From contig CAJINV010000015.1 in assembly GCA_905178155.1 (NCBI GenBank), positions 186,001-250,000 of the forward strand: DNA of 64,000 nt, in the 5' to 3' direction. Numbering within the stretch: position 1 is the stretch's first letter; each line of letters starts with the position of its first letter. Below, piece by piece: positions 1 through 63,753 of the stretch. The DNA comes from Amoebophrya sp. A120. Lineage: Eukaryota; Protista; Dinoflagellata. The translations under genes were made by a program, and so were the position numbers. The notes below the pieces were generated by a model that saw only the letters and a program-made list of their open reading frames with translations, did no database searches and had not been told where the DNA came from.

Positions 1-3000
1 CGAATGTTGTCTCGGTCGTAGTTTTCTGGCCCATTTTCGTAGATGTCCTTGATTCGTTTGGCCGCTCCATTCTCCGGCTGAAACAAAAAGTCTTGAAAAG
101 CGGGCTCCCCGCTCCCGGAGTTTTCCGCCAGTCGCCCCGCTAACGTGACTGCCGCGGAAATTTTCTTCATACTGGGCGTCCTATTCTTCGGAAAACTGGA
201 TGTGGCATAGGCAAAATCCAATTTCTGTTTCAAATTTGTCATGAGCAAATAAGTAGCTGCAAAAGCGACTTTCTACAAACTTATTTCTGTGTTGCACCTT
301 CACCGCAAGCCAATTTGAATTCGCGTGCGGAGAGAGAATAAAAATGTATCTATTCTGGTATGCTTCTCGATGTTCGTCGTCCTAAATATGCATGAGATAG
401 AAACCACTTTGTTATTTTTCTCGCTAAGCCAACAAGTAGTACGCTTAACTAGTAAAACGCTATGCCACATCCAGTATTTTCTGTAGGATATGCTAAACCT
501 CCTGCGCCGACGTCTCGCAGCTCCCCGGCGACGCCAAAGTTCGGCTTTGCCAAGCTGTGCAACAGGTGGTTCGCAACAGCATTCTCGTGCTGCAGACCCA
601 GGTTCAGGTTGGAAAACTGCGTCAAAAACTGGAACTCGATTTTCACCAAGTTCTGCTGCTGCCCCGTCGCCGAGCTGAACAGCATGGTGTTGTGAATCAA
701 AGTATCGAAACAAAAAAGCTGCAAAGACCTCCCACGAAAGAAGGTCTCCGATCATGCGACAAGACAATTGAAGGGAAAGCAATGAGAAGATGCAAATCTT
801 GCACGGATGGGCAAGCTTCAAGGAAAATCTCGGAGAATCTCCTTGGCCCAAGGAGATTCTCCTGGACCCCCAGGAGAATCTCCTCCCTCCCCTCCTCCTC
901 TCTCCTAATTTTCCATTTTTTTCTTCTTTCTTTTTTTTTCTTTTCTTTCTTTTTCCTTCATTTGCTTCCTTTTCCATCATTTGCTTCCTTTTCCTTCATT
1001 TCCTTCTATTTCCTTCACTTCCTCCCGCTGTCTCGCTCCCCTTCTCCCAAGGAGAATCTCCTTGGCAAGGAGATTCTCCCCGAACGTGGGAGAATCTCCT
1101 TGCCAAGGAGATTCTCATAGCCCGCCAGAAAACCACAAAAGCAGAACTTATCGCCCTTGGACGCCCGGGCGCAGTGCAATGCCAGGGGCGCGGCGCCCTC
1201 TGCGGCCCAAGCCGCACCTTCAAGGGCGGGCGCACTGCCCTATGCGGCCCGACGCAGACGCAAGCTCAAGGGCGCAAGGCCCTACGAAGCCTTTCCCGGG
1301 CGCCCTGCTGACTATGGCGCCGCGCTCGAGGGCGGTTTGCCCCATGCAACCTCACATCAACATCAAGTGCGCTGCCCTATAAAGCCCGAAGAACGGCCGC
1401 AATTTCACGGCCATTTTGCGCGATGTGGCCGGTGCTGGGTCGCAACGAAAAGCAAGTCGTCCCTCGACCGCTTTACCGGCAACTCGCCTCTCAGCCGTTC
1501 GCACCACAGCGCATCAGAGGCAGATCACCCCGCACCCGCTCCGAAGCGACCTCAAAGGCAAACCACCCCCACGACCAACTAGAATCGACCTCAAACGAAA
1601 CACAAATCGCGCCAGGCAAGTCGCACAACAAAAGCTCAACCCCAACCAAGGGCCAGGCGCCCGGCAGCCGCTCAGGCGCTGCATGCTTGCGCGCAATTTG
1701 AAAGGGAGGCCACCCCTCAGCAACTCCAGCGTGATTGCAAGAGCAGCGCGCCCCGGGCTGTTCATCTGGCGCGATTTCAAGGGCGCCCCGCCAAATCGGG
1801 CCCTTTTTAACGGCCGGAACAGCAGGCCCTGCAACTTGCGGCGACCGGCACCCCAGCCACACACTGAGATGGTGACTCGGCAGCAAACCCGTGGACCCAC
1901 GACCCGGGGTAGCCCGAGTACAGCACTCCAAATGCCCACACCCAAGAAGCAAAAACGCGCCCCCGTGGAAAGAATTTTCGCCGGCCAGCCGCGAGCGAAC
2001 GCGTATGGCCCTCGGCGTAGGGCAACGAAGAAGAAGGGCACGCCCGCGGCAGGCGCGCGAAAAAAATTGTGTCGGCCACCCGTGCAAGAAACTAGAAGGG
2101 CGCCAGGTCAAAGCAGTGCAGTGAAGCGGAGGACGGCGCGCGCGCAGGCGCGCGCCAAAAAAATATTTGTCGGTCGCCCGTGCGAGATAGAAACTGCAGG
2201 GGTGCCGGCGCGAAGCAGCGAAGGATGGAGCAGTGCGCGCCGCGCGCGAGCCAACTTTTTGTCAGTCAGCCGCCCGCGCAAGAAACGGCGAGGGCGTTGG
2301 CGCGAGGCAGTGCAGGTTGGAGCGCGCGCAGCGCGCGCGCGAGAGAAAATTTTTGCCGGCCAGCCGTGCAAGGTAGAAACCGCCAGGGCGTTGGCGCGAA
2401 GCAACAAAGTATGACGCGCGCGCAGCGCGCGCGGGAAAAAAAAATTTTTTGGTCGCTCGTCCAAAATAGAAACCGCCAGGGCATTGGTGCGAAGCAACGA
2501 AGGAAGGGGCGCGCGCAGCGCGCGCTGCAAACAAAAATTTTTTTGGCCGCCCGCGCAAAATAGAAGCCGCCGGACCGTTGGCGCGAAACAGTGGCGGACG
2601 AAGCGCGCGCAGGGCAGCGCGTGCGCGAGAAAAATTTTTGTCGGGTATCCGTGCAAGATAGAAACTGCGCGTGCGCTGGCACGACGAGTCGAAGGATGCA
2701 GCGCGCGCAGCGCGCGCCCGAAAAAAATCCGCCACCCGCGCAAGAAAGTACAAGGTCACTGGCGCGGCGCAACGAAAAATGGCGCGCGCGCAGCGCGCGC
2801 GATTTTTTTCTGACCACCCGTGTGAGAATAAAACTGCAAGGGCGCTGGCGCGAAGCGACAAGGGATGGGGCACACGCACCGCGCGCGCGAAAAAAATTTT
2901 TGTCGGGCCCCCGTGCAAGAAACTGCAGGGGTGAAGGTGTGGCGCGCACGCAAAAAAATTTTGTGTGGCACCCACGCAGGAAACAAACTGCAAGGCCGCT

Positions 3001-6000
3001 GACGCGAAGCAGAGAAGGGTGCGGCGTGTGTGCGAAAGATTTCTGTCGGGTACCCGTTCAGGCAACTGCAAGGGCGCTGGCGCGAAGCAGCGAAGGGTGG
3101 AGCGCGCGCCGCGCGCGCGAAAGAAGTTTTTTTTTGTCGGCCGGCCGCCCATGCAAGAATGAAAGCGCAAGGGCCTCGGCGCGGCGCAACGCAGTGTGGA
3201 ACGCGCGCGGCACGCGCGCGACTAAAATTTTTGCCGTGCGCACGTGAAAAAAAGCGCAAAGCCGTCGGCGCGAAACAACGACGAGGAACGGAGCACGTGC
3301 TGCGCGCGGGCGGAGGCAATTTTGAAGGTCCGCGAACGAAGGCGCAGGGCCGTCGGTGCGAAGCAACGACGGGCAGAGCGTGAGCGGGTGCGGCGCGCGC
3401 GCGAAATAAAAAAAGCCGTTGCGACCGCGACGGTGCAGGAATTTGAAGCGCAGCGCCGTCGGCGCAAAGAAAGAGGGGACGCAGCGCGCGCTGCTCGTGT
3501 GCGGAGCAAGGTCTTTGCTCTGCAAGGCCCGGGACTACATGCGAGTAGAAAAAGCCGGCTCTTGCTGTCGGCCATGCAAACCGCACAGCCGAACCGGCTA
3601 CAAAGGGACCCACAGGCAGGGGCACGCGCGCAACGCGAAAAGTTCTTTGCTTTTTTGCTAACCATTGGCGACTGGGTCGCGCGCAAAAGTAGAAGCTGTC
3701 GCGTTCTGTTCAGTTTCAAAGACGCAAACACCGAACAAAAGAAATGCCGCCAGCACCGCGCCGCCGGGAGCCAATCAAGAGGAGAGCTGCTGCGCGCCTG
3801 CGCGCGTTTTGTATGTAAGGACGGAGCGAAGCCTGGGCTGATGCTGCAGCAAGGCTGGCGCCACACGGGCGGGGCAGGCGGGCGAAGGGCAGGACCAAAA
3901 AGTCTTCCGCCCCCGGTGCGCAGGCGGGCCGGGGGCTCTTGGTGGCAACGGTCAGCGCGCACGTAGTTTGGCCCACGCTCATCCCTTCATCTTGCACGGG
4001 CGCCAGCGCTCGTCTTGGTCTACTATTTCTTTCTATGCTAATATGAGCATGAAGCTCGACGCCAGTTCATAATCTAAATTTTATGGGGGGGAATCTCCTT
4101 GAGGGAGAATCTCCTTAGGCCGTCGGTAGAATTTCCTTGAGATTTTTTTTTTTCCAACATAATATCAACAAGGGGAAAATAAAATCGGGCATATTTCATT
4201 TCGACTACTACGTCGACAAATTAATGGGAAATGCTTGTTTAAACGATTCATCCAGGCGGCTCCAGAGCTACATCATCGACGCGTGTAATAGAAATGCATT
4301 GGCCGACCGGCATCACAGATGGGTTTGACCAAGAAAATCCATAATCATGCAAAGCCGTATTTTTGCTTTCCAATCCAATAATTTGTCTCGCGCTCGTCCT
4401 TGGGGGTAAAAATCTCGTTCATTTTTCATACAAATTCCGGAAGATGAAATCCTATGAACTGCAAAAGTAGTAACGTACTACGTATAAATAGCATCACACA
4501 TTCTCTCAGGATTAGAAATGGAATTTCTAATGCTGTTTTGCCTTAGGAAGAAGATCTGTCATGCGTGTTTGCAATTAGTACGAGTACGATACTTCTGCAC
4601 TGCATAATTCCTGTTGCTGTAGCTGCCCGTGGGCAGCAGTGGACGACGAAGTAGGTGGATGTTGGCAGAAGTCGCCCGTCTGGTGCGTTGCCTGTCCCTG
4701 GCCCGCCGTACCACTGGCACGACCCGGCGTGCAGAGTAACACCGGCGGGATGATAGCGTTCAAATAGTTCTCGTTGGGCAGTTATCAAGCGTAAAAATGT
4801 CTGGGTCTGGAAGGTTGGAAGTTGTAATGCAGGTTTTCCATGACTCGTTAGGTCTGGAATGCGGGACCTAGCAAGACAGAGTCTGTGAGGTCTCTGTCAT
4901 GCCTCTCCTGCATGAGAAACTCCCTCCCAACTTGGTCGAAAGTGGGCAGCTTTTGGCACTCATGCAACACAGATGTCTGCATGATTCGGATTTAGCATGA
5001 CAAGTTGCAATCTTCCCGACCCAGACATTTTTACATTCAATAGCAGTTGCACGGCGTTCTCGCTGTGGCGAATGCGGTTGAAGTCGCCGAATTTTGCCAG
5101 CTCCTGCAGGGTATCCTGTGCAAAAGTATCGTACTCGTATAAATGCAAGTCTTGCATTACAAATCTTTTTCTTAAGGCAAATCCGCATGACAAATTTTAT
5201 TTCTCATGCTGAGAAAATTTGTAATGCATTTATACGAGTACGATACTTTTGCAGTTCATACAGGGATTCGTCCACGGAGAGCATGCCCTGTACCTCCTCC
5301 TGGTGCTTCTTCGCCTTCAGAAAGTTGGCCAGCACGGGCTTGACGAGGTGCTCAAAGAACCGCACCGCGATCACATTGCCCAGTTGCTGCGAAACCGGCT
5401 TCACCGGCACGTTGCCCGCAGTGGTAAGTGTGGAAGTAGTTGTAGCGGGGTGCGATGCACCTACCGCTGCATTTTTCGCAGGCGTTGACGATGAAGCGAG
5501 GTCTTCCTTCGAGAGAACCGTGTGGAGCTCGTGCGCCACTGGGCCCAGCAGGTCCGTTTTGAAGGATTCGAGCTGGAGCTTTAAACTGTCAAGCTTCTTC
5601 TCATTCTTTTCGGTCTTGATGGACCTGCTCGTGGTAGACGACCTGGAAGTGGAGGTGGCTGCTGCGTCCCGTATCAGCAAGAACAATCCTCCCCCTCGAC
5701 CCAGTGACATGCTGGAGAATGTGTGATGCGGATGTGATGTGTGTAGTACAAGAAGTCACGACTTTGTATTGCAGCAAGCCAGCGGCAGCGGCCTACGCAG
5801 ATAGAGATACTTCGGCTTCGCCTGTGTAGCAACTAGAACTCTGCCCGTTCTTTCGGCATGACAATAAAACAGGAACGGAAGGAAACTCGCGTATAAAATG
5901 CAATGAAAACAAGCAGTCGCTTGTCTTTTATGCAAGAATACCAAGCGACTTTTACTTGCGCCGCACCCAAACAAAGCATGAGTATCACAAGTCGCCTATA

Positions 6001-9000
6001 ATAATTGAGCACCATAGCAGGGCATCAACGAGGAGGGATCATTCTTCCTCATCATATCCCGGCTGCCGTTACCGGTCGCTTGGTGTAGCAGTTCCCGGGC
6101 GGCCGTCAGTTCTTTGTTCACCGCTTGGACCCGTTTTTCGAGAACGGCTTATCGAAAGGAAAGATCCCCCCTCCCCATATCAAAACGGAAATTTGTGATG
6201 CTGAAACGGAAATCTGTAATGCTGATTTGTGGCCACAGATCAGCTTTGTATTGCAGAGAGGCATGGCGGCCAGATCCCCAGGCTAGGTAGGGGCGTATGG
6301 GTCTAGTTGTTCAGCATGGCAAACGGCTCCCCTTTAGGCCTAACAGCATGACAAATCGCTTCCATAATGGGGCGGAAGCTTCTGCCCTTGTCTTCTTGCA
6401 AGACAGATGTGATTTGTAACCTCAAATCCGGAACACAAATTTTTGTTGACATACCTTTTCAATATGGGGAGGGGGAGTTTTTCCTTTCAATACGGCTTGG
6501 CCCTTCTTTTCCAGCAGCTCGTACACTTTCGCGCGCAGCGACTCCTATCAAATGCAAAAATGTCTGGGTCTGGAAGGATGCAAGGTTTGTCAGGCACATT
6601 CTGCATGACTCCTGAACCTGATCGATGTGTGATGCATGCCCCAGCATCACAGATTTTGTGAGGGCTTCCTTATGTCTTTACCGCATGAGAAATGCCCTCT
6701 CGCCGTGGCAAAAACTGGACCTCTTTTGCTCTTCATGCAATACAGAGCTTTGTAGAATCCAAGTGCAGCATCACAAGTTGTAGCCTTCCAGACCCAGACA
6801 TATTTGCAATTCATAACTCCACGGCCGTCACAAATTCCGCCTCGGTATAGCCCGCAAGCCGCCCGTTGGTCGTGTCGTACGCATCGAATTTCGTGTTCGC
6901 TTTCGGTTGCAGTCGCTCCGCCCGGTTCATCTCGTCCCGTCCTCCCGGCTCCCCGTCGTCGGCTTCATTTACCTTTTCCATGGAAATCAGCTCCGCATGC
7001 TCCCCTGCGAAGATGTGCTGTGCGAACTGCTCCTGCAAGTCGGTCCACATCTCCAGCGTGAGCTCTATCCTGAGTAAAAATGTCCCCACCCCAGAGTTGT
7101 CATGCAGATCTGCATGCCGAAAAAGTTTCTCATGCGGACTTCCATGCGAGCCATTTTCTATTCGCGTTGTGGAATTTGTGACGCTAGAATCAGCATGCTA
7201 CGCGAGATCTGTGATGCTTCTGAACTAGCGAAACAGGATTACACTAGGTGGGCAAACTTGTCATGCCAAACAACCAAAGCTGGTTGATTTGTCTAGCAGA
7301 TTTCCCACCATGCCTCTGGTGTGGGCGGCACGTTTTTAATCAGGATAGGCTCCGTTTCTTTCTTTTCCTCCTCGACCACTTGTTGGGCTGCCGTCGAGGT
7401 GCCGGTTGTTGTAGTACCCGAGGACGCGGCACCACCACCCGGACTTTCACTTTGCTGCTGCAGTTTCTTCAGGTCTTTCTTCAATTCCCGGACTTTTTCG
7501 TGGATCTTGTCCTTTCCCAAGGTCACGATCTGCCGCAACTGACTGGCGGCGGCGTTCCCGCCGAAGGGGTACAGCCACCGCCCAAAGCTGGACAACAGTT
7601 GCTCGAGTTCCGTTTTCAATTCTTGAAACTGCTTCCTTTCGCTCTCTATCAAAGGCAAAAGTGTCTGGGTCTGGAAGATTCTGAGACTTGTCATGCACGT
7701 ATTGCATGGGCCATGATGTCTGTGATGCATGCCCTAGCATCACAGACTTTTTGAGGGCTTCGTGATACCTATTCCGCATGACAAATGCCCTCTCCGCTTA
7801 GCCAAAATTGCATTCCCTTTGCTGGTCATGCAATACAGATTTTTTTGGAATCCAAATGCAGCATCAGAAGTTCGGATTCTTCCTGACCCAGACATTTTTA
7901 CATTTTATACTCTCCAGCAGACTGCGCTGCTCCTCGTACGCCTCCTGTTTGTCCATCACTCTCTTGATGCTTGAATGGGCTTTGGGATTGAAGCTTGTGT
8001 CCTCGGTTTTCAGCGATTTTGCCAAAGGGCCGCTGAGGCTGGCCAGGGTTTGCTCGGCGACGACGAGGATATGTTTCTTATTCTTTTCCTTATATTTCTC
8101 CTTAGTTTCAGGCGACTTTAGCGATTCAATTTCTGCAGTATATCGCTCATGCATCTTCTTCCGCACATCCTCGACCAGATCGGTGAAATCATCACGCTCA
8201 GCTGCGACCTCGAAGTCCTTGAGCGGCGAATCCCTCCAGATCGTGTCGATGTCGGTCTTTAAGACAGTTAGTTCGTATTTGTGGGGATTATTTCTGGCGC
8301 TAGACCACTCCTCGGCCAGCCTGGTTTTCAATTGCGTGATCGTCACCCTCAACTTTTGGGCCTTGACGCCGGACACCTCGTTTCGCAAGATTTGCTTCTG
8401 TTCGTCGATCTTTGCACTCAGCTCCGCCGGCAGCTTTTCCTTCAGCTCGACGTCCAAGTGCCCGATCTGTTTTTTCAGCCTCCTTAACTGCTTGTTCACT
8501 CGGTCATCCAGCACCTGCTGCACCGGCTCGGCCAGTTTCGCACGAAAATACGTCAGCAGTTTTCCCGGGCGGAAGAGCTTGGTGATTTTTGCGGCGGGCA
8601 TAGAAGTTGTAGTACTTCTACCCAGCTGCCCACTAACAACTTGTTCTTCTCCAGTCGTACTAGTTCTGGCGAGAACGAAGGCCTCTCCGCCGGACAGCTC
8701 GTGCGGCTTTAACAGCGCCGCCTCGTTCAACTGGAATGTGGTTGCGCTGGTGTCCGTGTAGTCGCGCAAAAGGGCGTCAACGTCGCAGCTGTGGACCTTT
8801 TCCAGCTGCTCCAGCCGCTGCGACCACTCCACCGAAGCTCTAGAAGTTGTACCAAACACGTGTTTCAGGTTCAGTGCCAGAGAATTATCCAGCAATTGCT
8901 CCACAAACCCGCGCATTTCCGTCATTCGCGCAGAGCCCCGGAGGTCACGCGGGTTCGCGGCTGTGTGATCCACGTAGTATTCTTTGCCGATCGACTGCTG

Positions 9001-54000: not shown

Positions 54001-57000
54001 TATATGCATGACAAGTTTCCATCTGGATCTGTAGCGCAGTTCTGTTTAGCAAGCGTAACCGCATCACAAAGACGCCTGCTGATCCTGTTTACCGCATTAG
54101 AAATCTCAGAAAACGACTACAAAATCATCCCATGCGGATGCGCATTGCAGATGTTTCTGTGGATGCAAATCTGCATGACACCTATGGGGTGGGGAAGTTT
54201 TTCTGTAGGATATCGGCTAGGGTCGCGTCCGCGTTTACCCCCGCGTCGCTGTAGTACTGAATAGAGGGGAGTTTGTCCTTCATGTGCTTGTACTGCGGTC
54301 CTGCGCCCGCAATAACCATATTCGTTTCCACATTGGCTTCGTATTTCACGTATCCTGTGCAAAAGTATCGCACTCGTAGTAATCGCAGTCATGCATTACA
54401 AATCTGCATCCCAAGGTAAATCCGCATGACAAATTGTATTTCTCATGCTGCGCAGCTAATTTGTCATGCGAATGCGATTCATACTAGTACGATACTTTTG
54501 CAATGCATATCACGCCGTACCGACTTCCGGTTGTGTTGTCGGCGTACCATTCGGACTTCAGCGCGTCGAACATAAAGTCCGCCGGGTCGCCAACCGTGAC
54601 GTCACTTAAATAGCTATCCTGAGTAAAAACGTCCCCACACCAGAGTCCAGATGGTGACTTTGCTACACAAATCAACAAATTTTGGCTGTTTCGCATGACA
54701 AGTTTAAACGCGTATTCTAGTGCTGTTTGAGGTAGTGCAGCCGCATGACAAATCGACTACCTTATTCTGATTCCAGCATCACAAGCTTCCAGATAGCATG
54801 AGAAAATGTCTCTCATGGGGATCCGCATGAGAAAAATTTCGAGCATGCGTTTTTGCATGACAACTGTGGGGTAGGGGCGTTTTTACATAGGATAATAGCA
54901 GGCCCGCTGGGTTGAGGACTTTCCCCCGTCGCCAGTTTTTTCCTGGTTGTCCTGTGTGTTCGCGGCGACGCGGAGACCAAATTGCTCGTAGATGTTCGCG
55001 TTTTTTTCCGCGTCGCGTTTTGCCAGGACGGGGGAGGAAGTCATGGAATCCACTTTTTTCCCGTACACTACTGCCATAATGACCGCGACACCCGCTAGCA
55101 GTTCCGTTTTCCCCTCGCCCGTGGCGACTTGCAAGAGTACGCCCCGGGTTCTGCGGTCATTTTCGGATTGTTCTATTTCAGGAGCAGTACTGCTCTGGGG
55201 ATCTTCAGTCGAGGCTGGTGTGGTGGTTGTACCAGATTGATGGGCGGTGGAACTACCTCCAGCACCAGTGGACGCCTGCTGCGCATTCATGGCAGTAGAA
55301 GTTCCAGCTGAAGACAGAACTCCTCCCGTCGTTCCTGTCAAAAGCTGCAGCAGGCTTTTCCGCTCAAACAGGGGCGTCGCATCGTTCAATACAAACTGCT
55401 CACCTATCATTAGCAAAAGTGTCTGGGTCTGGATCAAAGCAACTTGTCATGCTAAATCTGAATGATGTATAAAATCTGTCTTGCATGCTTGCCAAAAGCT
55501 GTCCACTTTTGACCTAATCGAGAGGCAGTTTCTCATGCAGGATAGGCATGATGGAACTCTCACAGAATCTGTCATGCTATGTCCTACATGCCAGAGGACC
55601 TCATGGGTCATGGAAAACCTGCATGACAAGTCTGGCATTCTTCCAGACCCAAACATTTTTGCATTTGATATCACCATTCGCCAGGAAGTCGTTCCGCATG
55701 CTGTCCCAGTGCGCGCGGACAACTTCGATCAGGGATAAGAGCTGAATATTGTGGAGCTTGAAGTTCTTCACTTTGTAGATCCCCGCGTAGTAGACCTGCA
55801 AGGCCTGCACGGTCAACTTCTCGTAGATGCGCAACACCGGTAGAATACCTTTCTCCAGGATGTTCTGGACGCGTTTGAATCGGGCGCGCTCCACCCGGTG
55901 GGCCCGCGCGCTGGCCTTCTTGGCGCTGACCTCGCTTTTGTCGAGAACCGACCTCGCTTTGTCAAACCAACTTGTGGGAATGTCGACGACCTCAGGCCTG
56001 CCGTGGGCCATCACGTACTCGTGTTTAATTTGTGGCACGAAGGTGTAGGGCCGGTCCAACGCCCAGTAGCCTGCGGTGGTACTTCCGACATTCTCCCAGG
56101 TGTGTCTTTCGACCAGCATTTTTATCCTGTGTAAAAACGTCCCCACAGCCTTAGTCAAGTTGCGAATCTAGCACCACAAGTCCGCAAGTTTTGGGAGCTG
56201 TGCATGACAAGTTTCTTTCTGCAGTGTAGTGCTGGTGGGCAAGGGAAGCCGCATGAGAAAGCCATTTTCTCATCCTGTTTACAGCATTACAAATATCAAA
56301 ACACGATTGGAAATGGCTCTCATGGAGATGCGCATCACAAACGTTTTCTGTAATTGTACATCTGCATGACAACTCTGGGGTCGTGGGGACGTTTTTCCTC
56401 AGGATAATTTTTCTCTCTTCATCCGTGTACCTCGAGCCAGAAAATTCGTCTAACAGGCTATCAGAATGAAAAATGCCCCCACCCCCGAACTTGAAAGCAT
56501 TTGTATTGCAAATCTTTCCAAATGAAACACTCGCCCTCTTGCGTGTATCAGCATCACAGATTTCCGATCGTGAATAGCAAAAATTTGTATTGCAAAAGAT
56601 CCCAGCAAGAGCGGTGCTTGTCATGCAAGCGATGCGAAACTTGACTAGAATCTGCATCAGAAAGATTCGTACTCCTTTCATGCATGACAAAAAGCTTTCA
56701 TTTGGAAACTTCGCATCACAAATTCTTGCAATTTCAGGGGTGGGGGGCAGTTTTCACTGTGATACAGGCGCGTTTCTTCCCGTTCCTCCAAGTCACTCAC
56801 CGCGAAGACTTGCGACAGGCTCTGACCGCTGTCCAGGGTCGTTTGGCCGTCATTTGACTCCAATTCCGCAGCAAATTTGTCACTGAGCACCACATCAAGC
56901 TTTGCCAAGTGCTCGGCGAGCAGCTTTTTTAACTTTGGAGCCACTTCGGACCTAATGTGCTTGGACCAGTTCGTGAGCTCCTTCGCATCGTACTGCTTCA

Positions 57001-60000
57001 GCCGCTTGAAAATTCCATCGGTCAACTGAATGCCGAAGTCGCTTGTCTGCTCCCAAGGCCGCGTGTACGTCTCGTCGTTATTTCTGCGTCTAGCAATGGG
57101 TAACACGGTGTCGAGCACGCGCTGCACGTTCTGATCATGGGGCCACACATATCAGAATGAAAAATCCCCCCTCCCCATATTGAAAAGGTATGCTCCCAAG
57201 AATTTGTGTTGCGGATTTGAGGTCACAAATCACATCTGTCTTGCAAGAAGACAAGGGCAGAAGCTTCCGCCCCATTATGGAAGCGGTTTGTCATGCTGTT
57301 GGGCCTAAAGGGGGGCCGTTTGCCATGCTGAGCTACTTACTAGACCCATACGCCCCTACCTAGCCAGGGGATCTGGCCGCAGTGTTAGGGCGGAAAAATC
57401 GGCAAATAGCATCATTTTTGCAAGCGCACTTTTTGGGGGGGCAAAAAAATTATGGCTATTGGGGGTGTCGCTACTGCTTTTTTTCCTGTTGGCCATTTAG
57501 ATGCTGGCGCCGCTCTTCGTTGTCACGTTCCGCCATCCGGCCCTCCCCTTTTTCCAATAGAGCCGCAGCATTTTGTTGAAGTTGCATAGGCCTGCGGCCC
57601 CCCGGCGCGGGAAGCCGCGCCCCCTCTCCGGCATCCAATTCCGTACGCGCCCAGACATCTTCGCATCTTCCCTTTACGGCCAGATATTGAGAATGCGGAC
57701 GCGCCAGCAGTCAAATGCTTCCGGGGGGGTGCCGAAGGGGGGGGGGTAAGGGGGTGCGCTTGGGCTGCCTCTGGGCTACCATTTTGGGGCACGCAAAATC
57801 GGCAGTTTCTAATGGGGATTAGGGGGTCGGCATAGGCTACCGAAAGGGTACCCGGAAGGGGTACCCGGAAGGGGTGTCCGAAGGGGGCAAAAATGCACCC
57901 CCCTGACCACCCCCCTTGCCGGGTTCCCTCTTCCTCGTGGCGAGCGTCCTCGTTGTGGTCCGGTCCCGGAGGTGGCCCAGCCACTTCTCGAAGAGCGGGC
58001 CTACTCAACATTGCCGGGCCATCTGAGCGACAACGCACAGCGCGAAGGCGCTGCCGCCTGTTTCGTGTCTTGCTATGAAGGCCTTTTGAAAGCCGAGCTA
58101 TCATGTTTCTCGTGGAAAAGATGAAGTGATGCTTTACTTCTGTTGATTTCCAGGTAGTTGACTCCCTGACAAAAGAAAAAAAAATACCCCCCCAAAGTGT
58201 GAGCTGACAAAAATGATGCTATTTGCCGATTTTTCCGCCCTAACAGTGCCTCTCTGCAATACAAAGCTGATTTGTGGTCACAAATCAGCATCACAAATTT
58301 CAGTTTTGATATGGGGAGGGGGGATTTTTCCTCTCAATAACACATACTGCCGCTTCTTTCCCTCGAGGTTGGTTTCCGCCTTGTTATATGAAATGTAAAA
58401 ATGTCTGGGTCTGGAAGATTCTGAGACTTGTCATGCACGTTTTGCATAAGCCATGAGGTCTGGAATGCGAGACCTAGCATGACAGATTCTGTGAGATCCG
58501 TATAATGCCTATCCTGCATGAGAAACTTCCTCTCAACTTGGTCAAAAGTGGACAGCTTTTGGCATTGATGCAACACAGAGTTTTGGCACGATCCAGAATT
58601 AGCATCACAAGTTGCAACCTTCCAGACCCAGACATTTTTACAATGCATATGTTACCGAGGTCGAGTTGCGTTGGTTGATAGGGAAGGTGGGATCTGTACA
58701 GGACGTGCTCTTTCTCGAGTTCCTGATCGATAGTCTGATCCCGTTCCCGGCTGACGAGCGGGTCGGCCATGGCTCTAGGCCGCTGGTCGCCGTGGACCGC
58801 ACCAGAGGCCGCCGTGGTTCCACTTGCTCCAGGACCGCCACCCGTGCTGCCGCCCATGGTTTCCTGCGCCGGAGGGGCCTCTTGCTGCAGCTCTAGTTCC
58901 ACCCGAGCCACCTGTTGCGCGGCTGCCAGTTGGGTTCTTTCTTGGGCCTTGCTTTTCTTCTTCGGCCTCGCCTTAGATTTGGAAGAAGCAGGGCGATTAT
59001 TCCGTCCGCTGACCATCTCGGAGTAGTCAATTCCAGCTGCAGGAGCGGTAGGCGCCACAGCAATTTCCACATCAGGCGCCACGTCAGCCATAGTTGTTTC
59101 TTGTGCGGATACAACTTGCTGCGCGCTAGCCGCCGGAGCGGCGGCTCCTGGAGAATGCGTGGACCGCGGTGCCGGGGCAACACTGGAAGACGGCGCTGAA
59201 CCACTTCCCGAGGGGTTGTTGGCCGCCACCTCGCCCTGAACTACGTTCTGCCCGGCCGACCCAAGCCTCTGAGCCGCCTGCTCGTCGTTCGTGCCTGCCG
59301 TGCTTTTCCAACGCATGAAGAAGCGCGCCATGATGTACTCCACATTCCACGATCAAATGCAAAAATGTGTGGGTGCGGAAGATTGCAGGAGTTTGTCATG
59401 CATCTTCTGGATAACGCAGCTGGTCTCTAATGCACGCAAAAGCATTACAGGTTTTGCGCAGGCCTCCTGATGCCTATCCCGCATGAGAAATTCCCTATTT
59501 GCGTAGCAAGAAATGGGAAGCTTTTGGTGCTTATGCAACACAAATTTTTGCCTCTTCCAGAAATCGCATGACAAGATCCAACTCTTCCACGCCCAGACAT
59601 ATTTGCAACTGATATCCACTCAAAGCTGCCAATCAAGCTGCGCCCTATCTCGGTCTTCCTGACGTAGTTCAAAACATACTTCCTGAACCCGTCCTCGTCA
59701 ACAAAGTCAGCCAAAACCTCGCCGGCACACTTTTCGAATTTAGCTGGGTCGGCCATACATTTTTCGAGATTGTCCTGCTGCTTCCGGTAGAATTCACGGG
59801 CGTGAAAGAAGTCTTTCGCAGACGTGCTTGCCGACTGGAACTGCTGCTTCAAGTTTTGCACTGCAGCCCCTACCTCCTGGAAAAAACCGGTGACATCCTG
59901 GATGATTTCGGTCCCGGCGGTCACTATGTTCCCCAAGGGGTTGCACTGCGACGTCACATCCTCCTCGTCATACAAGCTTCCGTATGTTTGAGCAGAGGTG

Positions 60001-63000
60001 GTTTTTTTCTTCTGCTCTTCCCGTTTCCAGTTGTATTCGGGGTCAATCCAGAAAGCGTAGTTTCGCAGCTTCCGCTTGTCCATCTCGTGGATCCTTCGGG
60101 GTATCAAGTGCAAAAGTGTCTGGGTCTGGAAAGGTGTAAGCTCGTCATGCAGATTTTCCATGACCCATGAGGTCTGGAGTGCAGGACTTAGCATGACAGA
60201 CTCTGCGAGGTCTCTGCCATGCCTATCCTGCATGCTAAACTCCCTTCCATCTTGGTCAAAAGTGGAAAGCTTTTGGCACTCATGCAACACAGATTTTTGC
60301 ATGCTTCAGATTTACCATGACAAGTTGCAGCCACCTTCCAGACCCAGACATTTTTGCATTTGATACGGGGTTCCAACGCACCAATGAGTTCGATTTCGGG
60401 AATTTCGCCCTTGACCTTGTTATCTCCTGCGCTCTGGCTCCTGCATTCCAATTGCATGTCCGTCATAGACAACAAATCGGCGAGACGGACGAATTCTCGT
60501 TCCAGCCCCGCTTCGAGTTTGGTTCTCTTTCGCGGTTTGTACATGTCATCGCCGTCATTTTGCACGATGTGCCAGAACGTGGCGTCTCTGGTTTCTTCCG
60601 GTAAACTGTCCGGGTCTTCATAGTCTTGCTCGTCTATGAGTGCAGGATATCCCACGAAAAAAGTGTTACAGTTACACATTTGTAGTCAATTCAGCAACAC
60701 AAATTTCTCTGCATGAGAGAGAAAACTTGTAATGCAGAAATCCTACGGGAAAACACTTATGAAACGAGGCTCCTATGCATATCCGGCATGACAGAGCTTG
60801 TCTGTCTTGCTTGGCCTGCAACACAGTGTGTAACTGTAACACTTTTTTCTTGCGATACAGGACTCGCGAAATCCACTGCGCCGAATCCGTCCTGATTTGT
60901 AATGGCCTCGACCATATCAAATGTAAAAATGTCTGGGTCTGGAAGAATGCAACTTGTGATGCTGCATTTGGATTCCAGAAGAATGTGTATTGCATGAGTA
61001 CCAAAAGGAATGCAATTTTTGCTACGCGGAGAGGGCATTTGTCCTGCGGAATAGGCACCAAGAAGCTCTCAAGAAATCTGTGATGCTAGGGCATGCATCA
61101 CAGACATCAGGGCTCATGCAAAAGGTGCATGACAAGGGTCAGAATCTTCCAGACCTAGACACTTTTACAGTTGATAGACCATGTTATTCTGCAGCTCTTC
61201 CTCCAGTTGGATATACGCTGCTTTCAATAAACCATTCCTCGAATGATTCATCCGCTGGGTGTTCTGAGCAGACGACCCGTCTGCAGTGGTCCGCCCCGCA
61301 TCCACATCGTCATCGATGTTTTGGAGCAGCCGCAACTTTGCGTACCGGTAAAAATCCTGATCGTTGACCGACGGGCGGTCAAGCAAGACGTTCTTTTGAT
61401 TCGACAGAATCTGACTGCTCTTATTTCTACTCCTCCCATGTCTGTTCAAATTCATGCTCTTCGTCTCATCGGCCATGTGCTCCGTCACTTCCTTAAACAT
61501 GTAGTCGGCAACAAGGTTCACTTGCTTCACGATCTCCGTTTGTCCCGTTTCTCCTGGCAGCTGCAACTCCGCCAATTTAGTTTCGATCGGAATGTGGTCG
61601 TGCAACTTGCCAGTGATGAACTCCGCAGCGTCCAATAACTCCACGTCCCGCACTGCTTCGGCACCGGTGGAAATCTCGTTTTGTTTCTGTCGCTGCTGTT
61701 TCATCTTCGCTAGAACTTGTTTCTGAGTTCTAGAATGACCAGAAGCGGCAGAGGAAGAAGTTGTAGCCCCCGCGCCGGTCATCGTCTCTTCGTGGTAGTT
61801 ATTTTCTTGGAATTCCTTCAGAATTTCCGGTAAGGAAGTCGGCTCCCGTGGCTTTCCCGGCTCATCTTTCCCGAATCGCTTTTCTTGCACTTTCTTGAAC
61901 ACGCAGTGAAGCCACTCAGCGGCGGCCACCCTCGCTGGTCCGTCGACCGGATTCTGCTGGAGGAAGATATGTTCTTGGCTCGTCGCACCTATCCTATGTA
62001 AAAACGTCCCCACCCCATAGTTGTATATGCAAATCAGCATGGTGAGCGTGAAGATGTCTCTCATGCGGAGCCCCATGAGAAGCGTTTGCTACAACTCTTG
62101 TTTCAGAATTTGTCATCCTCCAATCAGCATGATGCGCTAGGTCTGTGATGCTGCTGAACTACTAGCCAAACAGGATCACACTACGAGGCCGAACTTGTCA
62201 TGCGCAACGGCCAAAGCTTGTTGATTTGTCTAGCAGATCTCCCATCTTGACTATGGGGTGGGGACGTTTTTCCTCTCAATAGCACCGGAGAAAAAGTCCG
62301 TGGAGAGGAACTGCTGGTGCTTGCCTTCTTTCATCAAACTCCTCCGTGTTATCAATTGCAAAAGTGTAGTCTGGGTCTGGAAGAATGCAAGATTTGTGCT
62401 GCAGGTTTTCCATGACCCATGAGGTCTGGAATGCGAGACCCGGCATGACAGATTCTTTGAGGTCTCTATGCCTGCCCTGCGTGAGAAGCTCCCTCTCAAC
62501 TTGGTCAAAAGCGGACACCTTTTGGTACTCACGCAACACAGATTTTCGTTTCATTCAGATTCAGCATGACAAGTTCTAATCTTCCAGACCCAGACATTTT
62601 GACAGTTGATACGTGTCACGAAGTTGAACGCATCAGTCGTAATTTTGTCGACGCTGTGGTCCGTCGTCGTCCCCATTCCCGCCAGCGGATTTCTCGCGGC
62701 CAGCGAATTCCAGAACGTGGCCTGCCTCACCGCGAAGAAGCGGATAATCGTAGAGAGCAAGGCGTTCTTGCTGAAGGAGCTGGTATGCTGCTGTTGCGAC
62801 CGGGTTTCGATCCAATATTTCGAGACCCGCAGCTCATCCACGGTAAACTTCTGCGCACTTTGCATGTCCGACTGCCGGCTGCGCTGATGTGCTCCTGCTT
62901 GCTGCGCTGCCGCGCGCTGTCTCTGCTGACTTGTAGGTGTGGAAGGCTGATGTGCAGCGGCGGCGGGGACACCGACAGCAGCTGTGGATGTTGTAGCAAA

Positions 63001-63753
63001 CGAATTTGCTCCTGAAGCATTCTCTTCGACTTCCTATCGTAAGAAAAAACTGTTTCACTGTAAGGATTTTGCAAGTTTTGCATCACAAGTTTGCTCTGCA
63101 TGACAGCGAAAATTTGCAATGCGCGATTTCCAAGGGAAAACACCGCTAAAAAGCCACTGTCTTGCATGTTTAGCAAGACAAACATTTCTGAGATACATTT
63201 TCTGCATTACAAGCTTACAGTGAAACAGATTTTTCTTGCGATACTTCCTCCCCGTTCTCCAACAGCACGTCCGGAAAGTTTTTCGCGTCGCAATATGCAA
63301 GAAAAAAAGTGTGTAAGTGTGACTCTGTCATGCAGAACATGCAACAGAGATACACCTGTCATGCCAGACAACCATGAAGTCCTCTTTTCACTTGTGTATT
63401 CCCCTACAAACCACGCATGACAGGTTGTTTCTGTCATGTAGAGCAAATTTGTGATGCTGTCAGCCAGAGAGAGTTACACTAACACAGTTTTTTTCTCGGA
63501 TACGCAGGTTTCCAATTTCAGTTCCAACAACCCCTCCTTGCTGTTGGATAATTGGAATTGCTGCACTAAGTTCAGCGTTTCCAGAAACACCGACTGCACG
63601 ATGGGCTGCAAAACAGCAATCGTGGCGTCATGTTGCTCTTGCCCCACCCCTGCGTCCTGTGCCAATGAAGCCACGTGCTTTCTGTAGAACTTTTCGAAAT
63701 CATTGACCACGTTGGGCACGGCAGAAGGAGCTGTTGTTACTGCACCTACGGGC
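1..63753 (-). CDS. Giant multi-exon gene (partial at both ends, ~106 exons, ~10,180 codons in window) encoding a SecA-DEAD-like ATPase domain protein
   Basis: I traced each junction by hand. Deleting element + one 5-bp direct repeat (DR) gives in-frame joins, e.g. SVDES|LQELAK, IRARRE|QYRLQ, NPAPM|LLRDF, VST|NLAGRG, GGL|HVEL. Summed exon length 30,549 nt matches the end phases. The weakest joins are introns 182-490, 703-4430 and 50916-51085. Confidence 0.8.
182..490. mobile_element. Introner-like intron, singleton family J
   Basis: IR tattcttcggaaaactggatgtggcatag / ctatgccacatccagtattttctgtaggata; DR decayed (cgtcc/tgcta); element+5 nt restores frame GGLA|PSMKK. Confidence 0.7.
831..1116. 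repeat. Palindromic GGAGAATCTCC/GGAGATTCTCC cluster around a polypyrimidine tract
   Basis: e.g. ggagaatctccttggcaaggagattctcc at ~1051; motif recurs at ~4088-4118. Confidence 0.8.
1950..3650. repeat. Degenerate ~90-95 bp CpG-rich tandem satellite
   Basis: Recurring gcgcgcgcg-aaaaaattttt-gtcgg..gtgcaagatagaaactgc..ggcgcgaagca at ~2180, 2276, 2366, 2459, 2553, 2651, 2738, 2820... Confidence 0.85.
4453..4606. mobile_element. Introner family B
   Basis: TIR aaaagtatcgtactcgta-like; DR aatcc/attcc. Confidence 0.85.
4783..5042. mobile_element. Introner family A (45 copies; TIR TAT-N7-aaaatgtctgggtctggaa)
   Basis: DR gcagt; join AVQL|PNEN. Confidence 0.9.
5112..5260. mobile_element. Introner family B (13 copies; TIR TAT-N7-aaaagtatcgtactcgta)
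   Basis: DR caggg; join DESL|QELA. Confidence 0.9.
5672..6056. mobile_element. Degenerate family C-like introner
   Basis: DR tcccg; eroded IR; join NGSR|DAAAT. Confidence 0.75.
6150..6492. mobile_element. Introner family C (11 copies; TIR TAT-N7-aaaaatccccctccccatat)
   Basis: DR cggct. Confidence 0.9.
6546..6815. mobile_element. Introner family A
   Basis: DR actcc. Confidence 0.9.
7066..7347. mobile_element. Introner family D (16 copies; TIR TAT-N7-aaaaacgtccccaccccagagt)
   Basis: DR agctc/ggctc. Confidence 0.9.
7647..7909. mobile_element. Introner family A
   Basis: DR ctctc. Confidence 0.9.
7910..10579 (-). CDS. Largest exon of giant gene (coiled-coil/low-complexity)
   Basis: 904-aa ORF 7864..10578 bounded by introners; in frame on both sides. 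Confidence 0.85.
10580..10869. mobile_element. Introner family D
   Basis: DR acatc. Confidence 0.9.
11160..11425. mobile_element. Introner family A
   Basis: DR gcgcc. Confidence 0.9.
11487..11810. mobile_element. Introner family C
   Basis: DR gaaga/gacga. Confidence 0.9.
11895..12233. mobile_element. Introner family A with ~80-bp internal insert
   Basis: DR agtag. Confidence 0.9.
12603..12847. mobile_element. Introner family A
   Basis: DR aaccg/atccg. Confidence 0.85.
12899..13160. mobile_element. Introner family A (TGT left end)
   Basis: DR tgctt/ggctt. Confidence 0.85.
13736..13885. mobile_element. Introner family B
   Basis: DR aagcc/aagct. Confidence 0.9.
13886..14919 (-). CDS. Exon of giant gene
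   Basis: Core of ORF 13825..14967; in-frame joins EEEE|GVEQ and SSF|NSK. Confidence 0.8.
14920..15181. mobile_element. Introner family A
   Basis: DR tcttc. Confidence 0.9.
15230..15448. mobile_element. Introner family G (3 copies; TIR tatgacagtgcacaactccc)
   Basis: DR tgttg/tgtta. Confidence 0.9.
15681..15906. mobile_element. Introner family E (9 copies, heterogeneous; TIR TAT-N7-aaaaa(g/c)tgt)
   Basis: DR ctgtc. Confidence 0.85.
15967..16294. mobile_element. Introner family C
   Basis: DR tctgc. Confidence 0.9.
17027..17960. repeat. 96-bp tandem array (~9.7 copies), each unit a stem-loop
   Basis: Unit starts 17027, 17123, 17219 ... 17891; ccctaggtca-tga-cgcggggac-cga-gtccccgcg-c-tgacctaggg. 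Confidence 0.95.
18050..18326. repeat. GGGGTGTGTC(C/T) minisatellite followed by inverted copies
   Basis: ggggtgtgtccggggtgtgtctggggtatg... then catacccc/gacacacccc/gaacatacccc. Confidence 0.8.
18780..19041. mobile_element. Introner family A
   Basis: DR tttgc. Confidence 0.9.
19126..19407. mobile_element. Introner family D
   Basis: DR gaatc/gaatt. Confidence 0.9.
19514..19725. mobile_element. Introner family E
   Basis: DR tctgt/tttgt. Confidence 0.9.
20094..20264. mobile_element. Introner family F (2 copies; TIR tatcccacagaaaaaagctggcagggca)
   Basis: DR agcca. Confidence 0.9.
20319..20585. mobile_element. Introner family A
   Basis: DR tgctg. Confidence 0.9.
20643..20925. mobile_element. 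Introner family D
   Basis: DR ccgtc. Confidence 0.9.
20992..21242. mobile_element. Introner family A
   Basis: DR acggt. Confidence 0.9.
21354..21605. mobile_element. Introner family A
   Basis: DR ttcct. Confidence 0.9.
21640..21918. mobile_element. Introner family D
   Basis: DR aggtt. Confidence 0.9.
21964..22192. mobile_element. Introner family G
   Basis: DR ctacc. Confidence 0.9.
22225..22486. mobile_element. Introner family A
   Basis: DR gcacg. Confidence 0.9.
22563..22892. mobile_element. Introner family C
   Basis: DR agttt. Confidence 0.9.
22972..23230. mobile_element. Introner family A
   Basis: DR ctcga. Confidence 0.9.
23287..23571. mobile_element. Introner family D
   Basis: DR gtcgt. 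Confidence 0.9.
23630..23790. mobile_element. Introner family B
   Basis: DR tggtg. Confidence 0.9.
23837..24159. mobile_element. Introner family C
   Basis: DR tgctc. Confidence 0.9.
24268..24503. mobile_element. Introner family G
   Basis: DR tcatg. Confidence 0.9.
24833..25116. mobile_element. Introner family A
   Basis: DR gctgg/gttgg. Confidence 0.9.
25426..25684. mobile_element. Introner family A (GTA right end)
   Basis: DR cgtgg. Confidence 0.85.
25713..25862. mobile_element. Introner family B
   Basis: DR gactc. Confidence 0.9.
25863..27405 (-). CDS. Exon of giant gene
   Basis: Core of 550-aa ORF 25837..27489; in-frame joins. Confidence 0.85.
27406..27670. mobile_element. Introner family A
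   Basis: DR aggtg. Confidence 0.9.
27854..28012. mobile_element. Introner family B
   Basis: DR gctcg. Confidence 0.85.
28058..28319. mobile_element. Introner family A
   Basis: DR gttga. Confidence 0.9.
28459..28735. mobile_element. Introner family A
   Basis: DR agtgg/agtgc. Confidence 0.9.
28788..29049. mobile_element. Introner family A
   Basis: DR tcccg. Confidence 0.9.
29217..29478. mobile_element. Introner family A
   Basis: DR agttg. Confidence 0.9.
29533..29687. mobile_element. Introner family B
   Basis: DR tttgc. Confidence 0.9.
29868..30189. mobile_element. Introner family C
   Basis: DR ggcat. Confidence 0.9.
30242..30507. mobile_element. Introner family A
   Basis: DR ccttg/tcttg. 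Confidence 0.9.
30624..31019. mobile_element. Degenerate family A introner with foreign interior
   Basis: DR aggaa; join SGVS|SPEF. Confidence 0.8.
30692..30736. repeat. Perfect 22-bp-arm palindrome with telomere-like TTTAGG motifs
   Basis: ctaaatcctaaaccccaaactg-t-cagtttggggtttaggatttag. Confidence 0.95.
31381..31702. mobile_element. Introner family C (ACA right end)
   Basis: DR ctctg. Confidence 0.9.
32418..32673. mobile_element. Introner family A
   Basis: DR agttg. Confidence 0.9.
33020..33281. mobile_element. Introner family A
   Basis: DR gcgca. Confidence 0.9.
33368..33624. mobile_element. Introner family A
   Basis: DR acttc/actcc. Confidence 0.9.
33765..34018. mobile_element. Introner family A
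   Basis: DR gagtt. Confidence 0.9.
34089..34352. mobile_element. Introner family A (TGT left end)
   Basis: DR gcctg. Confidence 0.85.
34405..34613. mobile_element. Introner family E
   Basis: DR gatgc. Confidence 0.9.
34982..35310. mobile_element. Introner family A, diverged, with internal insert
   Basis: DR cgtgc. Confidence 0.85.
35388..35537. mobile_element. Introner family B (CAT left end)
   Basis: DR ttgtg/ttgcg. Confidence 0.85.
35538..36969 (-). CDS. Exon of giant gene
   Basis: Core of 475-aa ORF 35490..36917; in-frame joins. Confidence 0.85.
36970..37275. mobile_element. Introner family H (2 copies; TIR TAT-N7-aaaaatgcccccacccc)
   Basis: DR gaaag; close copy at 56459. Confidence 0.9.
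37321..37582. mobile_element. Introner family A
   Basis: DR cgtca; reverse-complement near-copy of 22225-22486. Confidence 0.9.
37632..37893. mobile_element. Introner family A
   Basis: DR tgctg. Confidence 0.9.
38088..38298. mobile_element. Introner family E
   Basis: DR ggtcc/gatcc. Confidence 0.85.
38443..38597. mobile_element. Introner family B
   Basis: DR attag/attcg. Confidence 0.9.
39000..39310. mobile_element. Introner family C
   Basis: DR agacg. Confidence 0.9.
39688..39966. mobile_element. Introner family D
   Basis: DR atggt. Confidence 0.9.
39967..41101 (-). CDS. Exon of giant gene
   Basis: Core of 414-aa ORF 39834..41078; in-frame joins. Confidence 0.85.
41102..41380. mobile_element. 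Introner family D
   Basis: DR gcggt. Confidence 0.9.
41648..41822. mobile_element. Introner family F
   Basis: DR tgccg. Confidence 0.9.
42485..42656. mobile_element. Introner family B
   Basis: DR tcggc/tcgtc. Confidence 0.85.
42714..42959. mobile_element. Introner family E (diverged)
   Basis: DR aaatt/aaatg. Confidence 0.8.
43052..43318. mobile_element. Introner family A
   Basis: DR ttctc. Confidence 0.9.
43387..43638. mobile_element. Introner family A
   Basis: DR gcttc. Confidence 0.9.
44020..44188. mobile_element. Introner family B
   Basis: DR cgcaa. Confidence 0.85.
44670..44877. mobile_element. Introner family E
   Basis: DR tcagc. Confidence 0.85.
44878..45975 (-). CDS. Exon of giant gene
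   Basis: Core of 375-aa ORF 44849..45976; in-frame joins. Confidence 0.85.
45976..46285. mobile_element. Introner family C
   Basis: DR tttca. Confidence 0.9.
46347..46599. mobile_element. Introner family A
   Basis: DR gcacc. Confidence 0.9.
46829..47107. mobile_element. Introner family D with A-type outer end
   Basis: DR atacc; starts tatcaaatgtaaaaacgtaccc. Confidence 0.9.
47382..47660. mobile_element. Introner family D
   Basis: DR gtacc. Confidence 0.9.
47710..47965. mobile_element. Introner family A
   Basis: DR tggtg. Confidence 0.9.
47966..49084 (-). CDS. Exon: SecA motif VI region plus Gly/Ala-rich hydrophobic segment
   Basis: HVELT..QALGRTSRQG ... VGIVGGGVLAGAVVGVLIAGLF. Confidence 0.85.
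48990..55780 (-). CDS. SecA-like SF2 helicase/ATPase domain (split across ~13 exons of the giant gene)
   Basis: Ordered SecA motifs: KLHNIQLLSL; QVATGEGKT (~55105-55131); GKKVDSMTSSPVLAKRDAE; CYLSDVTVGDPADFMFDALK; DEVDMML (~52556); DYVV..WSDGIHQILE; FFRRYKFLYGVTGT; VSTNLAGRGTD; GGLHV; QALGRTSRQG. Confidence 0.9.
49085..49237. mobile_element. Introner family B (inside GGL|HV motif)
   Basis: DR caaac. Confidence 0.9.
49302..49566. mobile_element. Introner family A (inside ST|NLAGRG motif)
   Basis: DR ttgtg. Confidence 0.9.
49567..50307 (-). CDS. Exon: SecA-like WSDGIHQ and GVTGT motifs
   Basis: ENVDYVV..HWSDGIHQILE..FFRRYKFLYGVTGTLG. Confidence 0.9.
50308..50559. mobile_element. Introner family A
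   Basis: DR gtacg. Confidence 0.9.
50915..51086 (-). other. Intron lacking a recognisable TIR; possibly canonical GT-AG
   Basis: Minus strand GTAGTACG...GGTTATAG gives in-frame PDL|IVHVL; removing 50911-51085 also keeps frame. Confidence 0.6.
51750..52017. mobile_element. Introner family A
   Basis: DR tcgcg. Confidence 0.9.
52070..52358. mobile_element. Introner family D
   Basis: DR agcaa. Confidence 0.9.
52359..52881 (-). CDS. Exon: Walker B (DEVD)
   Basis: FDNVALADEVDMMLVND. Confidence 0.9.
52882..53093. mobile_element. Introner singleton family K
   Basis: IR TAT-N7-aaaaagtt(c/t)gtcgc; DR catgt/tatgt. Confidence 0.8.
53395..53670. mobile_element. Introner family D
   Basis: DR aatgc. 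Confidence 0.9.
53927..54212. mobile_element. Introner family D
   Basis: DR tcggc. Confidence 0.9.
54351..54509. mobile_element. Introner family B
   Basis: DR tcacg. Confidence 0.9.
54615..54894. mobile_element. Introner family D
   Basis: DR atagc. Confidence 0.9.
54895..55404 (-). CDS. Exon: Walker A (TGEGKT)
   Basis: GVLLQVATGEGKT..GKKVD..LAKRDAE. Confidence 0.9.
55405..55670. mobile_element. Introner family A
   Basis: DR tcacc. Confidence 0.9.
56123..56406. mobile_element. Introner family D
   Basis: DR atttt. Confidence 0.9.
56459..56764. mobile_element. Introner family H
   Basis: DR caggc. Confidence 0.9.
57150..58339. mobile_element. Family C introner carrying a nested element
   Basis: DR acaca; family C halves 57150-57384 and 58244-58339. 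Confidence 0.9.
57385..58243. mobile_element. Nested non-autonomous TIR element (MITE-like), 859 bp
   Basis: Perfect 36-bp TIR ttagggcggaaaaatcggcaaatagcatcatttttg; 5-bp TSD cagtg; empty site ggccgcagtgcc seen in the family C copy at ~24058. Confidence 0.95.
58387..58649. mobile_element. Introner family A
   Basis: DR tgtta. Confidence 0.9.
58650..59350 (-). CDS. Exon of giant gene (low complexity)
   Basis: Core of ORF 58474..59343; in-frame joins. Confidence 0.8.
59351..59614. mobile_element. Introner family A (GAT left end, variant TIR)
   Basis: DR tccac. Confidence 0.85.
60102..60365. mobile_element. Introner family A
   Basis: DR cgggg. Confidence 0.9.
60648..60857. mobile_element. Introner family E
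   Basis: TIR aaaaaagtgttacagttacaca; DR cagga. Confidence 0.9.
60915..61176. mobile_element. Introner family A
   Basis: DR gacca. Confidence 0.9.
61177..61989 (-). CDS. Exon of giant gene
   Basis: Core of ORF 61165..62076; in-frame joins. Confidence 0.8.
61990..62281. mobile_element. Introner family D
   Basis: DR gcacc. Confidence 0.9.
62350..62611. mobile_element. Introner family A
   Basis: DR cgtgt. Confidence 0.9.
63035..63243. mobile_element. Introner family E
   Basis: DR cttcc. Confidence 0.9.
63294..63502. mobile_element. Introner family E
   Basis: DR cgcaa/cgcag. Confidence 0.9.

Follow-up and report, generated by a model that had tools for sequence, protein, structure and literature searches.

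A stop-free frame of 10,145 codons across 105 introner elements in Amoebophrya sp. A120 predicts an oversized SecA-like protein

We analysed a window of 64,000 nucleotides from the marine dinoflagellate Amoebophrya sp. A120, a parasite of algae (assembly GCA_905178155.1, contig CAJINV010000015.1, positions 186,001 to 250,000 of the forward strand), and one open reading frame almost certainly runs across it on the minus strand. Excision of 105 introner elements, each with 5 nt, from positions 1 to 63754 leaves 30,439 nt, or 10,145 codons, with no stop, while the remaining two minus frames of the excised sequence contain 365 and 306 stops. A preliminary description of this DNA had proposed a stop-free minus-strand frame of 30,549 nt (~10,180 codons) over 105 junctions; scripted excision of element plus one direct repeat, followed by translation, likewise gave 105 elements and no in-frame stop, with a frame reported here as 111 nt shorter. 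The window part of the predicted protein alone amounts to 1.12 MDa, and with 318 aa taken from the public gene model P0001 beyond the window the protein reaches at least 10,463 aa and 1.15 MDa. That the frame corresponds to one mRNA and one protein is probable. We regard the giant frame as real and well supported, and its product as an oversized variant within a SecA-like family that is itself poorly described; the function is a proposal. The coordinates of the features are presented in Table 1.

Table 1. Coordinates of the features in the window (aa, residues of the predicted protein; DR, direct repeat; TIR, terminal inverted repeat)
Feature	Position	Strand	Description and basis
Spliced reading frame	3..63754	-	106 exons; exits the window on the left; no Met before codon 154 (62865)
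Presumed 3' end of a further intron	63755..64000	-	Each of the three minus frames has stops; first Met only at codon 154; predicted
105 introner elements	182..63502	.	Inverted ends of TAT + 7 nt + AAA; direct repeat of 5 nt; median ~260 nt; total 32,790 nt
Introner (element 182-490)	178..491	-	Strong paired ends; DR 1/5; element + 5 nt removed; fold z -3.4; fits X1 depth
3.7-kb intron (element 703-4430)	699..4431	-	DR 4/5, weak TIR; crossed by P0001; X1 depth fits; 94-bp tandem array inside
Intron (element 5672-6056)	5668..6057	-	Perfect DR; ends pair in fold, whole-strand z -1.1; 382-letter record gap as predicted; crossed by P0001
Introner (element 16653-18489)	16649..18490	-	Largest family; nested 1.6-kb insert; predicted splicing
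Introner (element 57150-58339)	57146..58340	-	10-copy family; nested MITE; predicted splicing
P0001-covered part	1..14862	-	Crosses 17 junctions incl. 703-4430 and 5672-6056; 318 more aa outside the window
SecA-like SF2 ATPase module, large insertions	48981..55149	-	aa 1420-2550; Pfam, PDB SecA chains (weak matches)
Two short conserved post-SecA blocks	47203..48371	-	aa 2754-2814 and 2931-2961; family profile E 2.4e-8 and 1.1e-5
Gly/Ala-rich hydrophobic segment	47341..48179	-	aa 2818-2915; hydropathy peaks at 2.36 (aa 2818-2857); membrane helices predicted
TPR-like block	45179..45796	-	aa 3145-3350; family profile E 2e-17; ESM Atlas TPR clusters 0.92-0.94
Conserved hydrophobic block, predicted membrane hairpin	24547..24825	-	aa 7015-7107; profile 6.9e-12; hydropathy

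Coding-like stretches alternate in the window with elements of 150-340 nt that start with TAT, end with ATA and sit between the copies of a 5-nt direct repeat. Without regard to reading frame, the sequence was scanned for terminal inverted repeats, TAT-like ends and direct repeats of 5 nt, which yielded 100 elements; two of these, 2410-2531 and 42552-42641, were discarded as spurious, and seven were added by eye where stops remained (182-490, 703-4430, 30624-31019, 31381-31702, 36970-37275, 42485-42656 and 50853-51133). The description as flanked by direct repeats holds for the 82 with perfect repeats and the 21 that match at 4/5 positions, but not for 50853-51133 (3/5) and 182-490 (1/5). Based on the 210 element ends, the first three letters are T in 208, A in 207 and T in 209, and positions 11-13 are A in 194, 203 and 199. 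Most elements (97/105) belong to nine families with 43, 16, 13, 10, 6, 3, 2, 2 and 2 copies, the other eight being singletons, and GT-AG can be read in any register at only 6/105. One family is present in both orientations in the same gene (12906-13161 and 14919-15174). The passages available from the literature describe the introners of A120 as TAT, seven freer bases and a run of A, with non-GT-AG borders and RNA-seq support as introns (PMC7789003, Farhat et al. 2021), and place tens of them in a gene (PMC12130899, Gozashti et al. 2025). The elements of the window are these published non-canonical introners: they share the inverted ends of TAT, 7 nt and an A run, the short direct repeats, which are 3-5 nt long in the published definition, the organisation in families, the non-GT-AG ends and the occurrence of tens per gene, and they differ from those in the available parts of PMC12130899 in that 105 are found in one gene.

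Concerning the reading frame, 57/106 exons have a single open minus frame, and it is the agreeing frame in 57/57. The phase test was limited to pairs of informative exons between which every element had been found automatically, because the seven added elements were not blind; five links with hand-added elements were thus excluded, and 51/51 of the others are in phase (chance 5e-25). When phases were randomised in 1000 trials, the best frame still had at least 113 stops. None of the 106 exons contains a stop, a UTR or an intergenic stretch. A codon-bias scan scored another frame higher in 23/1011 windows, which read as low-complexity stretches and not as hidden frameshifts. Excision of the element with 2 or 8 nt likewise preserves the frame, but these options are contradicted by contig coordinates, which match the excision with 5 nt.

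Both edges had been described as open. This is the case at the left edge; at the right edge the frame begins at 63,754, adjoining an in-frame stop at 63,755, and its openness depends on reading 63755-64000 as the end of an intron that continues beyond the window. From this stop and the late first Met we infer a further intron and upstream exons, and the 5' part of the gene and the N-terminus would lie beyond the right edge.

The Pfam scan covered 53 of the 106 exons, those of at least 150 nt, and two of them gave domains above the cut-off, SecA_DEAD (2.4e-10) and SecA_PP_bind (3.2e-6). Motifs of the frame that we take to be Walker A (ATGEGKT), DEVD, TNLAGRGTD and QALGRTSRQG look intact, which makes an active ATPase probable. 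The wing/scaffold domain is found neither in the 53 scanned exons at E<=0.1 nor in 11 relatives at E<=0.01. The blocks of the family are collinear from aa 1420 to aa 7107, across 53 junctions, and hydropathy marks three hydrophobic segments in the protein. The score of the first profile at aa ~7,000 is partly circular because the profile was seeded on that match; among 150 relatives chosen on SecA alone, 26-27 match aa 7006-7107 at E<0.01 (best 1.5e-8; reversed control 0) and 7-10 match windows around aa 2750-3350, and reversed windows gave one weak match in all. Upstream of SecA there are weak collinear family matches only (E 6.6e-3 and 9.2e-4). For aa 7108-10463, Pfam and homologue searches found no relative or domain, the C-terminal third matching only P0001, and therefore no effector domain was identified; the ESM Atlas returned no match for exon 7915-10578, and AlphaFold gave a 322-aa C-terminal stretch a pLDDT of 35 when run with no alignment. 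There are no internal repeats at E<=1e-3, and 31/348 blocks of 30 aa consist of at least 60% A/G/S/T/P.

A search with one SecA exon retrieved 2593 relatives at E<=0.001, of which the best from outside A120 belong to a large SecA-DEAD/TPR family. Most of the relatives are 2-5 kaa long and come from amphipods, rotifers, ciliates, Hydra, tardigrades and Rickettsiales, the bacterial ones including proteins of Ca. Tisiphia, Ca. Megaera and Rickettsia. The labels given in databases are 'Protein translocase subunit SecA', 'SecA-like and tetratricopeptide repeat-containing domain protein' and 'helicase carboxy-terminal domain protein'. The add-on domains of the relatives vary (e.g. LHH nuclease and Lipase_3), and further accessions in them presumably represent OTU, Ulp1-like, YopJ-like and deaminase families. 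The A120 protein and the family share the SecA core, the post-SecA blocks, the TPR and the hydrophobic block in identical order. They differ in length, the longest of the 208 relatives scored having 5,129 aa (one search covered proteins of up to 5,000 aa) against at least 10,463 aa here; in the distance from the core to the hydrophobic block, which is ~4,460 aa here and ~290-810 in the family; and in cargo, as Pfam, homologue and Atlas searches recognised no cargo domain in the A120 member. In a SecA-core tree built by a quick method from 68 rows out of 205 candidates (the named proteins and the best 35 others), the Amoebophrya pair is placed on a long branch, and we claim no donor.

Compared with canonical SecA, the motor motifs and the preprotein cross-linking domain are shared, whereas the wing/scaffold match is missing and the core extends over 1,130 aa through insertions within a chain of 10 kaa. 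Stand-alone SecA has ~800-1000 aa, with solved chains of up to 997 aa; here it is part of the 10,145-codon frame. Based on the available parts of two publications (10.1101/2023.11.21.568195; PMC8195603), the giant SecA-DEAD proteins of predatory Omnitrophota and Actinobacteria resemble the A120 protein in size, in having SecA DEAD and preprotein-binding domains but no wing/scaffold match, and in nearby hydrophobic segments. The Omnitrophota giants have numerous TM helices and cell-wall enzymes, whereas the protein described here is eukaryotic, intron-split and has three hydrophobic segments; none of their glycosidase, peptidase and ART domains was found by Pfam in the 53 exons. Self-export has been proposed for such giant bacterial SecA-like proteins (10.1101/2023.11.21.568195; PMC8195603), and the passage available from PMC3482391 lists SecA-like domains among the effector domains of Amoebophilus.

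The 105 introner elements would be spliced out to give a single mRNA of more than 32 kb, which would encode a predicted membrane-anchored SecA-like ATPase of at least 10,463 aa; when the algal host is infected, this motor would thread cargo domains, either its own or those of partners, through a membrane. Taken as a whole, we consider one frame, 105 introners, a single mRNA and a SecA-like motor threading cargo across a membrane during host infection to be the best explanation and a likely one. A role in effector delivery is suggested tentatively, by analogy with the varied cargo of the relatives, the SecA-like effector domains of Amoebophilus and the proposed self-export of the bacterial giants. 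The product may instead be, with a chance that we take seriously though it stays below even, a structural or housekeeping scaffold of one gene (a membrane tether, or a giant of the cortex or cytoskeleton); its SecA-like domain would remodel protein complexes, and the protein would not be a host-directed effector. The family occurs widely among free-living ciliates, rotifers, Hydra and arthropods, most of the frame has no Pfam match and is in part rich in A/G/S/T/P, and no toxin-like domain was found in the A120 member, all of which agrees with a scaffold; the variable-cargo layout of the relatives, their endosymbiont members and the Amoebophilus listing (PMC3482391) speak against it. The boldest version of the delivery role, which we hold to be rather unlikely, is a self-translocating SecA-motor effector of more than 1.15 MDa, a eukaryotic counterpart of the predatory-bacterial giants made through more than 105 consecutive non-canonical splices, that breaches or reprograms the algal host and has a second hidden copy on another scaffold. 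A full-text literature search, with most subscription journals outside its coverage, found no paper on an oversized SecA-like Amoebophrya protein, and the available parts of PMC12419801 and PMC11282704 hold nothing relevant. The intron class is known, and so are very long coding regions in A120, the longest annotated exon having 44,016 nt according to the passage in PMC7789003; giant size alone is not unique.

Public gene models cover only pieces of the gene. P0001 (2,570 aa) is a C-terminal piece whose first residue is an internal Met of the frame, at codon 7,894. P0002 (CAD7968365.1) is an A120 record of 261 aa, a SecA piece annotated 'partial', which exon 49574-50305 matches at 99% over the best stretch. 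The proposal of a protein above 1 MDa that annotation breaks up is thus borne out for the predicted mass within the window and for these two models, the full-length mRNA and protein being predicted. P0003 (CAD7945775.1), a paralogous SecA-like fragment annotated as partial on another A120 scaffold, is 73% identical over the core and probably belongs to a second fragmented giant gene.

Within P0001, eight imperfect repeats allow the register of the cut to be tested, and the sole fit to all of them keeps 4 letters of the upstream repeat. The fitted intron is 1 nt, the element and 4 nt, the first cut preceding the paired ends by 1 nt and the second following them by 4 nt. In this register the frame and P0001 are equal at 2252/2252 residues; alternative registers differ at 2-6. 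The cut position of introners is described as variable (1-5 nt) in the passage available from PMC7789003, whereas here a single register fits 8/8 testable imperfect repeats. Element 182-490, whose direct repeat is lost, is removed by P0001 in the usual register, which suggests that the paired ends and not the repeat set the cut. The paired ends would then set the cut at a fixed offset, by which one repeat copy would be lost, the frame restored and the insertion made silent. P0001 probably derives from an RNA-guided pipeline (passage in PMC7789003), and as it may rest on the same data as the contigs of run X1, the two may not be independent.

Seven of ten listed sequencing runs were compared with 40 of the 64 kb, up to 20 kb and from 44 kb on; 49 junctions lie between, in 20-44 kb. 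X1 consists of assembled contigs that we presume to be RNA, this being a guess. Between 12543 and 5261, record 1 of X1 (7,406 letters) matches in five listed pieces; record 2 matches in two. Both have 0 other letters, and the two records agree with the predicted spliced coordinates at 7/7 checkpoints. Directly abutting contig pieces bridge four junctions (10580-10869, 7647-7909, 13736-13885 and 55405-55670), and the joint 55399/55671 omits exactly 266+5. Seven further junctions, including 5672-6056, are accounted for by record gaps of 134 and 382 letters, and five more are supported by contig depth. The X1 contigs thus agree with the model in the 3' third and at a single junction close to 55.5 kb; from 44 to 64 kb, 1/31 junctions is bridged, with one exon-exon contig among the pieces listed (X1-X4), a gap in cover that does not argue for absence. 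What links aa 7107-7894 (22 junctions) and the part before aa 1420 (13 junctions) to the rest is phase, contig arithmetic (~15 and 19-20 kb) and weak matches (one protein, E 4.6e-4; one profile, E 9e-4). The fall of X1 depth along the gene (35, 8.7, 4.9, 3.1) was rejected as proof of a single transcript, since contig depth cannot rank gene parts. Record 1 would extend 2,295 letters beyond the left edge, where P0001 needs 957, implying a 3' UTR of ~1.3 kb. In the raw-read RNA runs X8 and X9, 257 and 5 reads were placed, nearly all partial and on element copies. The X8 reads at 15095-15183 and 4129-4161 are on element sequence and run into unrelated sequence; they are element copies in RNA that stems from other loci or a different strain. 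The depth of X6 contigs summed over element bins far exceeds the exon depth.

Two or more co-oriented genes, such as a SecA-family gene and the P0001 gene, might meet at or inside a large element and be in phase by chance, as the public annotation splits the region, as Amoebophrya genes lie in long co-oriented blocks (passage in PMC7789003) and as family homology is absent after aa 7107. Four large elements lie at the apparent gene boundaries, and the preliminary description had read all of them as introns. For 5672-6056 and 703-4430 the reading stands, based on P0001 and on arithmetic with the presumed-RNA contigs: if record 1 continues across 703-4430 and 182-490, a depth of 18.58 is predicted over 1-667, where X1 has 18.6, and X1 depth over 1335-4002 is 0. 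Element 703-4430 is a singleton with an X6 depth of 268-365 against ~45 on exons, which suggests several copies elsewhere. Elements 16653-18489 and 57150-58339 are ordinary introners, each being the two halves of a family member around a nested insert, and no contig bridges either; at the former, a contig piece starts at 18490 with just 20 letters before it. The missing bridge at 16653-18489 suits the two-gene reading. The insert 16779-18363 carries a 96-bp x9.8 array with 95% identity, and X1 and X6 contigs carry the introner form without it. The other insert is a MITE of 859 bp (57385-58243), of non-TAT type, in which 42/45 terminal letters pair and which has a 5-bp duplication. Retention of 16653-18489 or 57150-58339 would lead to a stop after 44 and 60 nt, respectively. 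Twelve ORFs in three large introns (10 of them in 703-4430) have no Pfam match, so no transposase was found there. Besides the ordinary introner structure of both unbridged elements, the uninterrupted exons, the lack of a spliced-leader match within the window and X1 record 2, which runs 100 letters past 14914 and thus upstream of the start of P0001, speak against separate genes, so that we judge them improbable; this record fits P0001 being a truncated model of the one gene that we propose. Removal of the elements from DNA (by somatic excision or in a strain that has none) and not from RNA, which the guessed RNA nature of X1 would allow, is most improbable, as X6 contigs retain the elements in place (e.g. 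5234-6177 and 1-839) at an even, single-copy exon depth of ~45, X1 exon cover is uneven with 44-64 kb barely covered, and such introns have RNA-seq support in the passage available from PMC7789003.

The single-gene reading gives a simple rule, the element plus five bases, which rebuilds a gene that annotation had left as unconnected hypothetical pieces; further giant proteins are therefore probably hidden in the Amoebophrya proteome. A transcript that needs at least 105 non-GT-AG splices would set a strict fidelity bound on an unexplained splicing system (0.99^105 ~0.35). The parasite joins a widespread SecA-like family that is shared with endosymbiotic bacteria and undescribed in the literature searched, with a member about twice as long as the longest relative found, and this protein may be a concrete candidate for host invasion.
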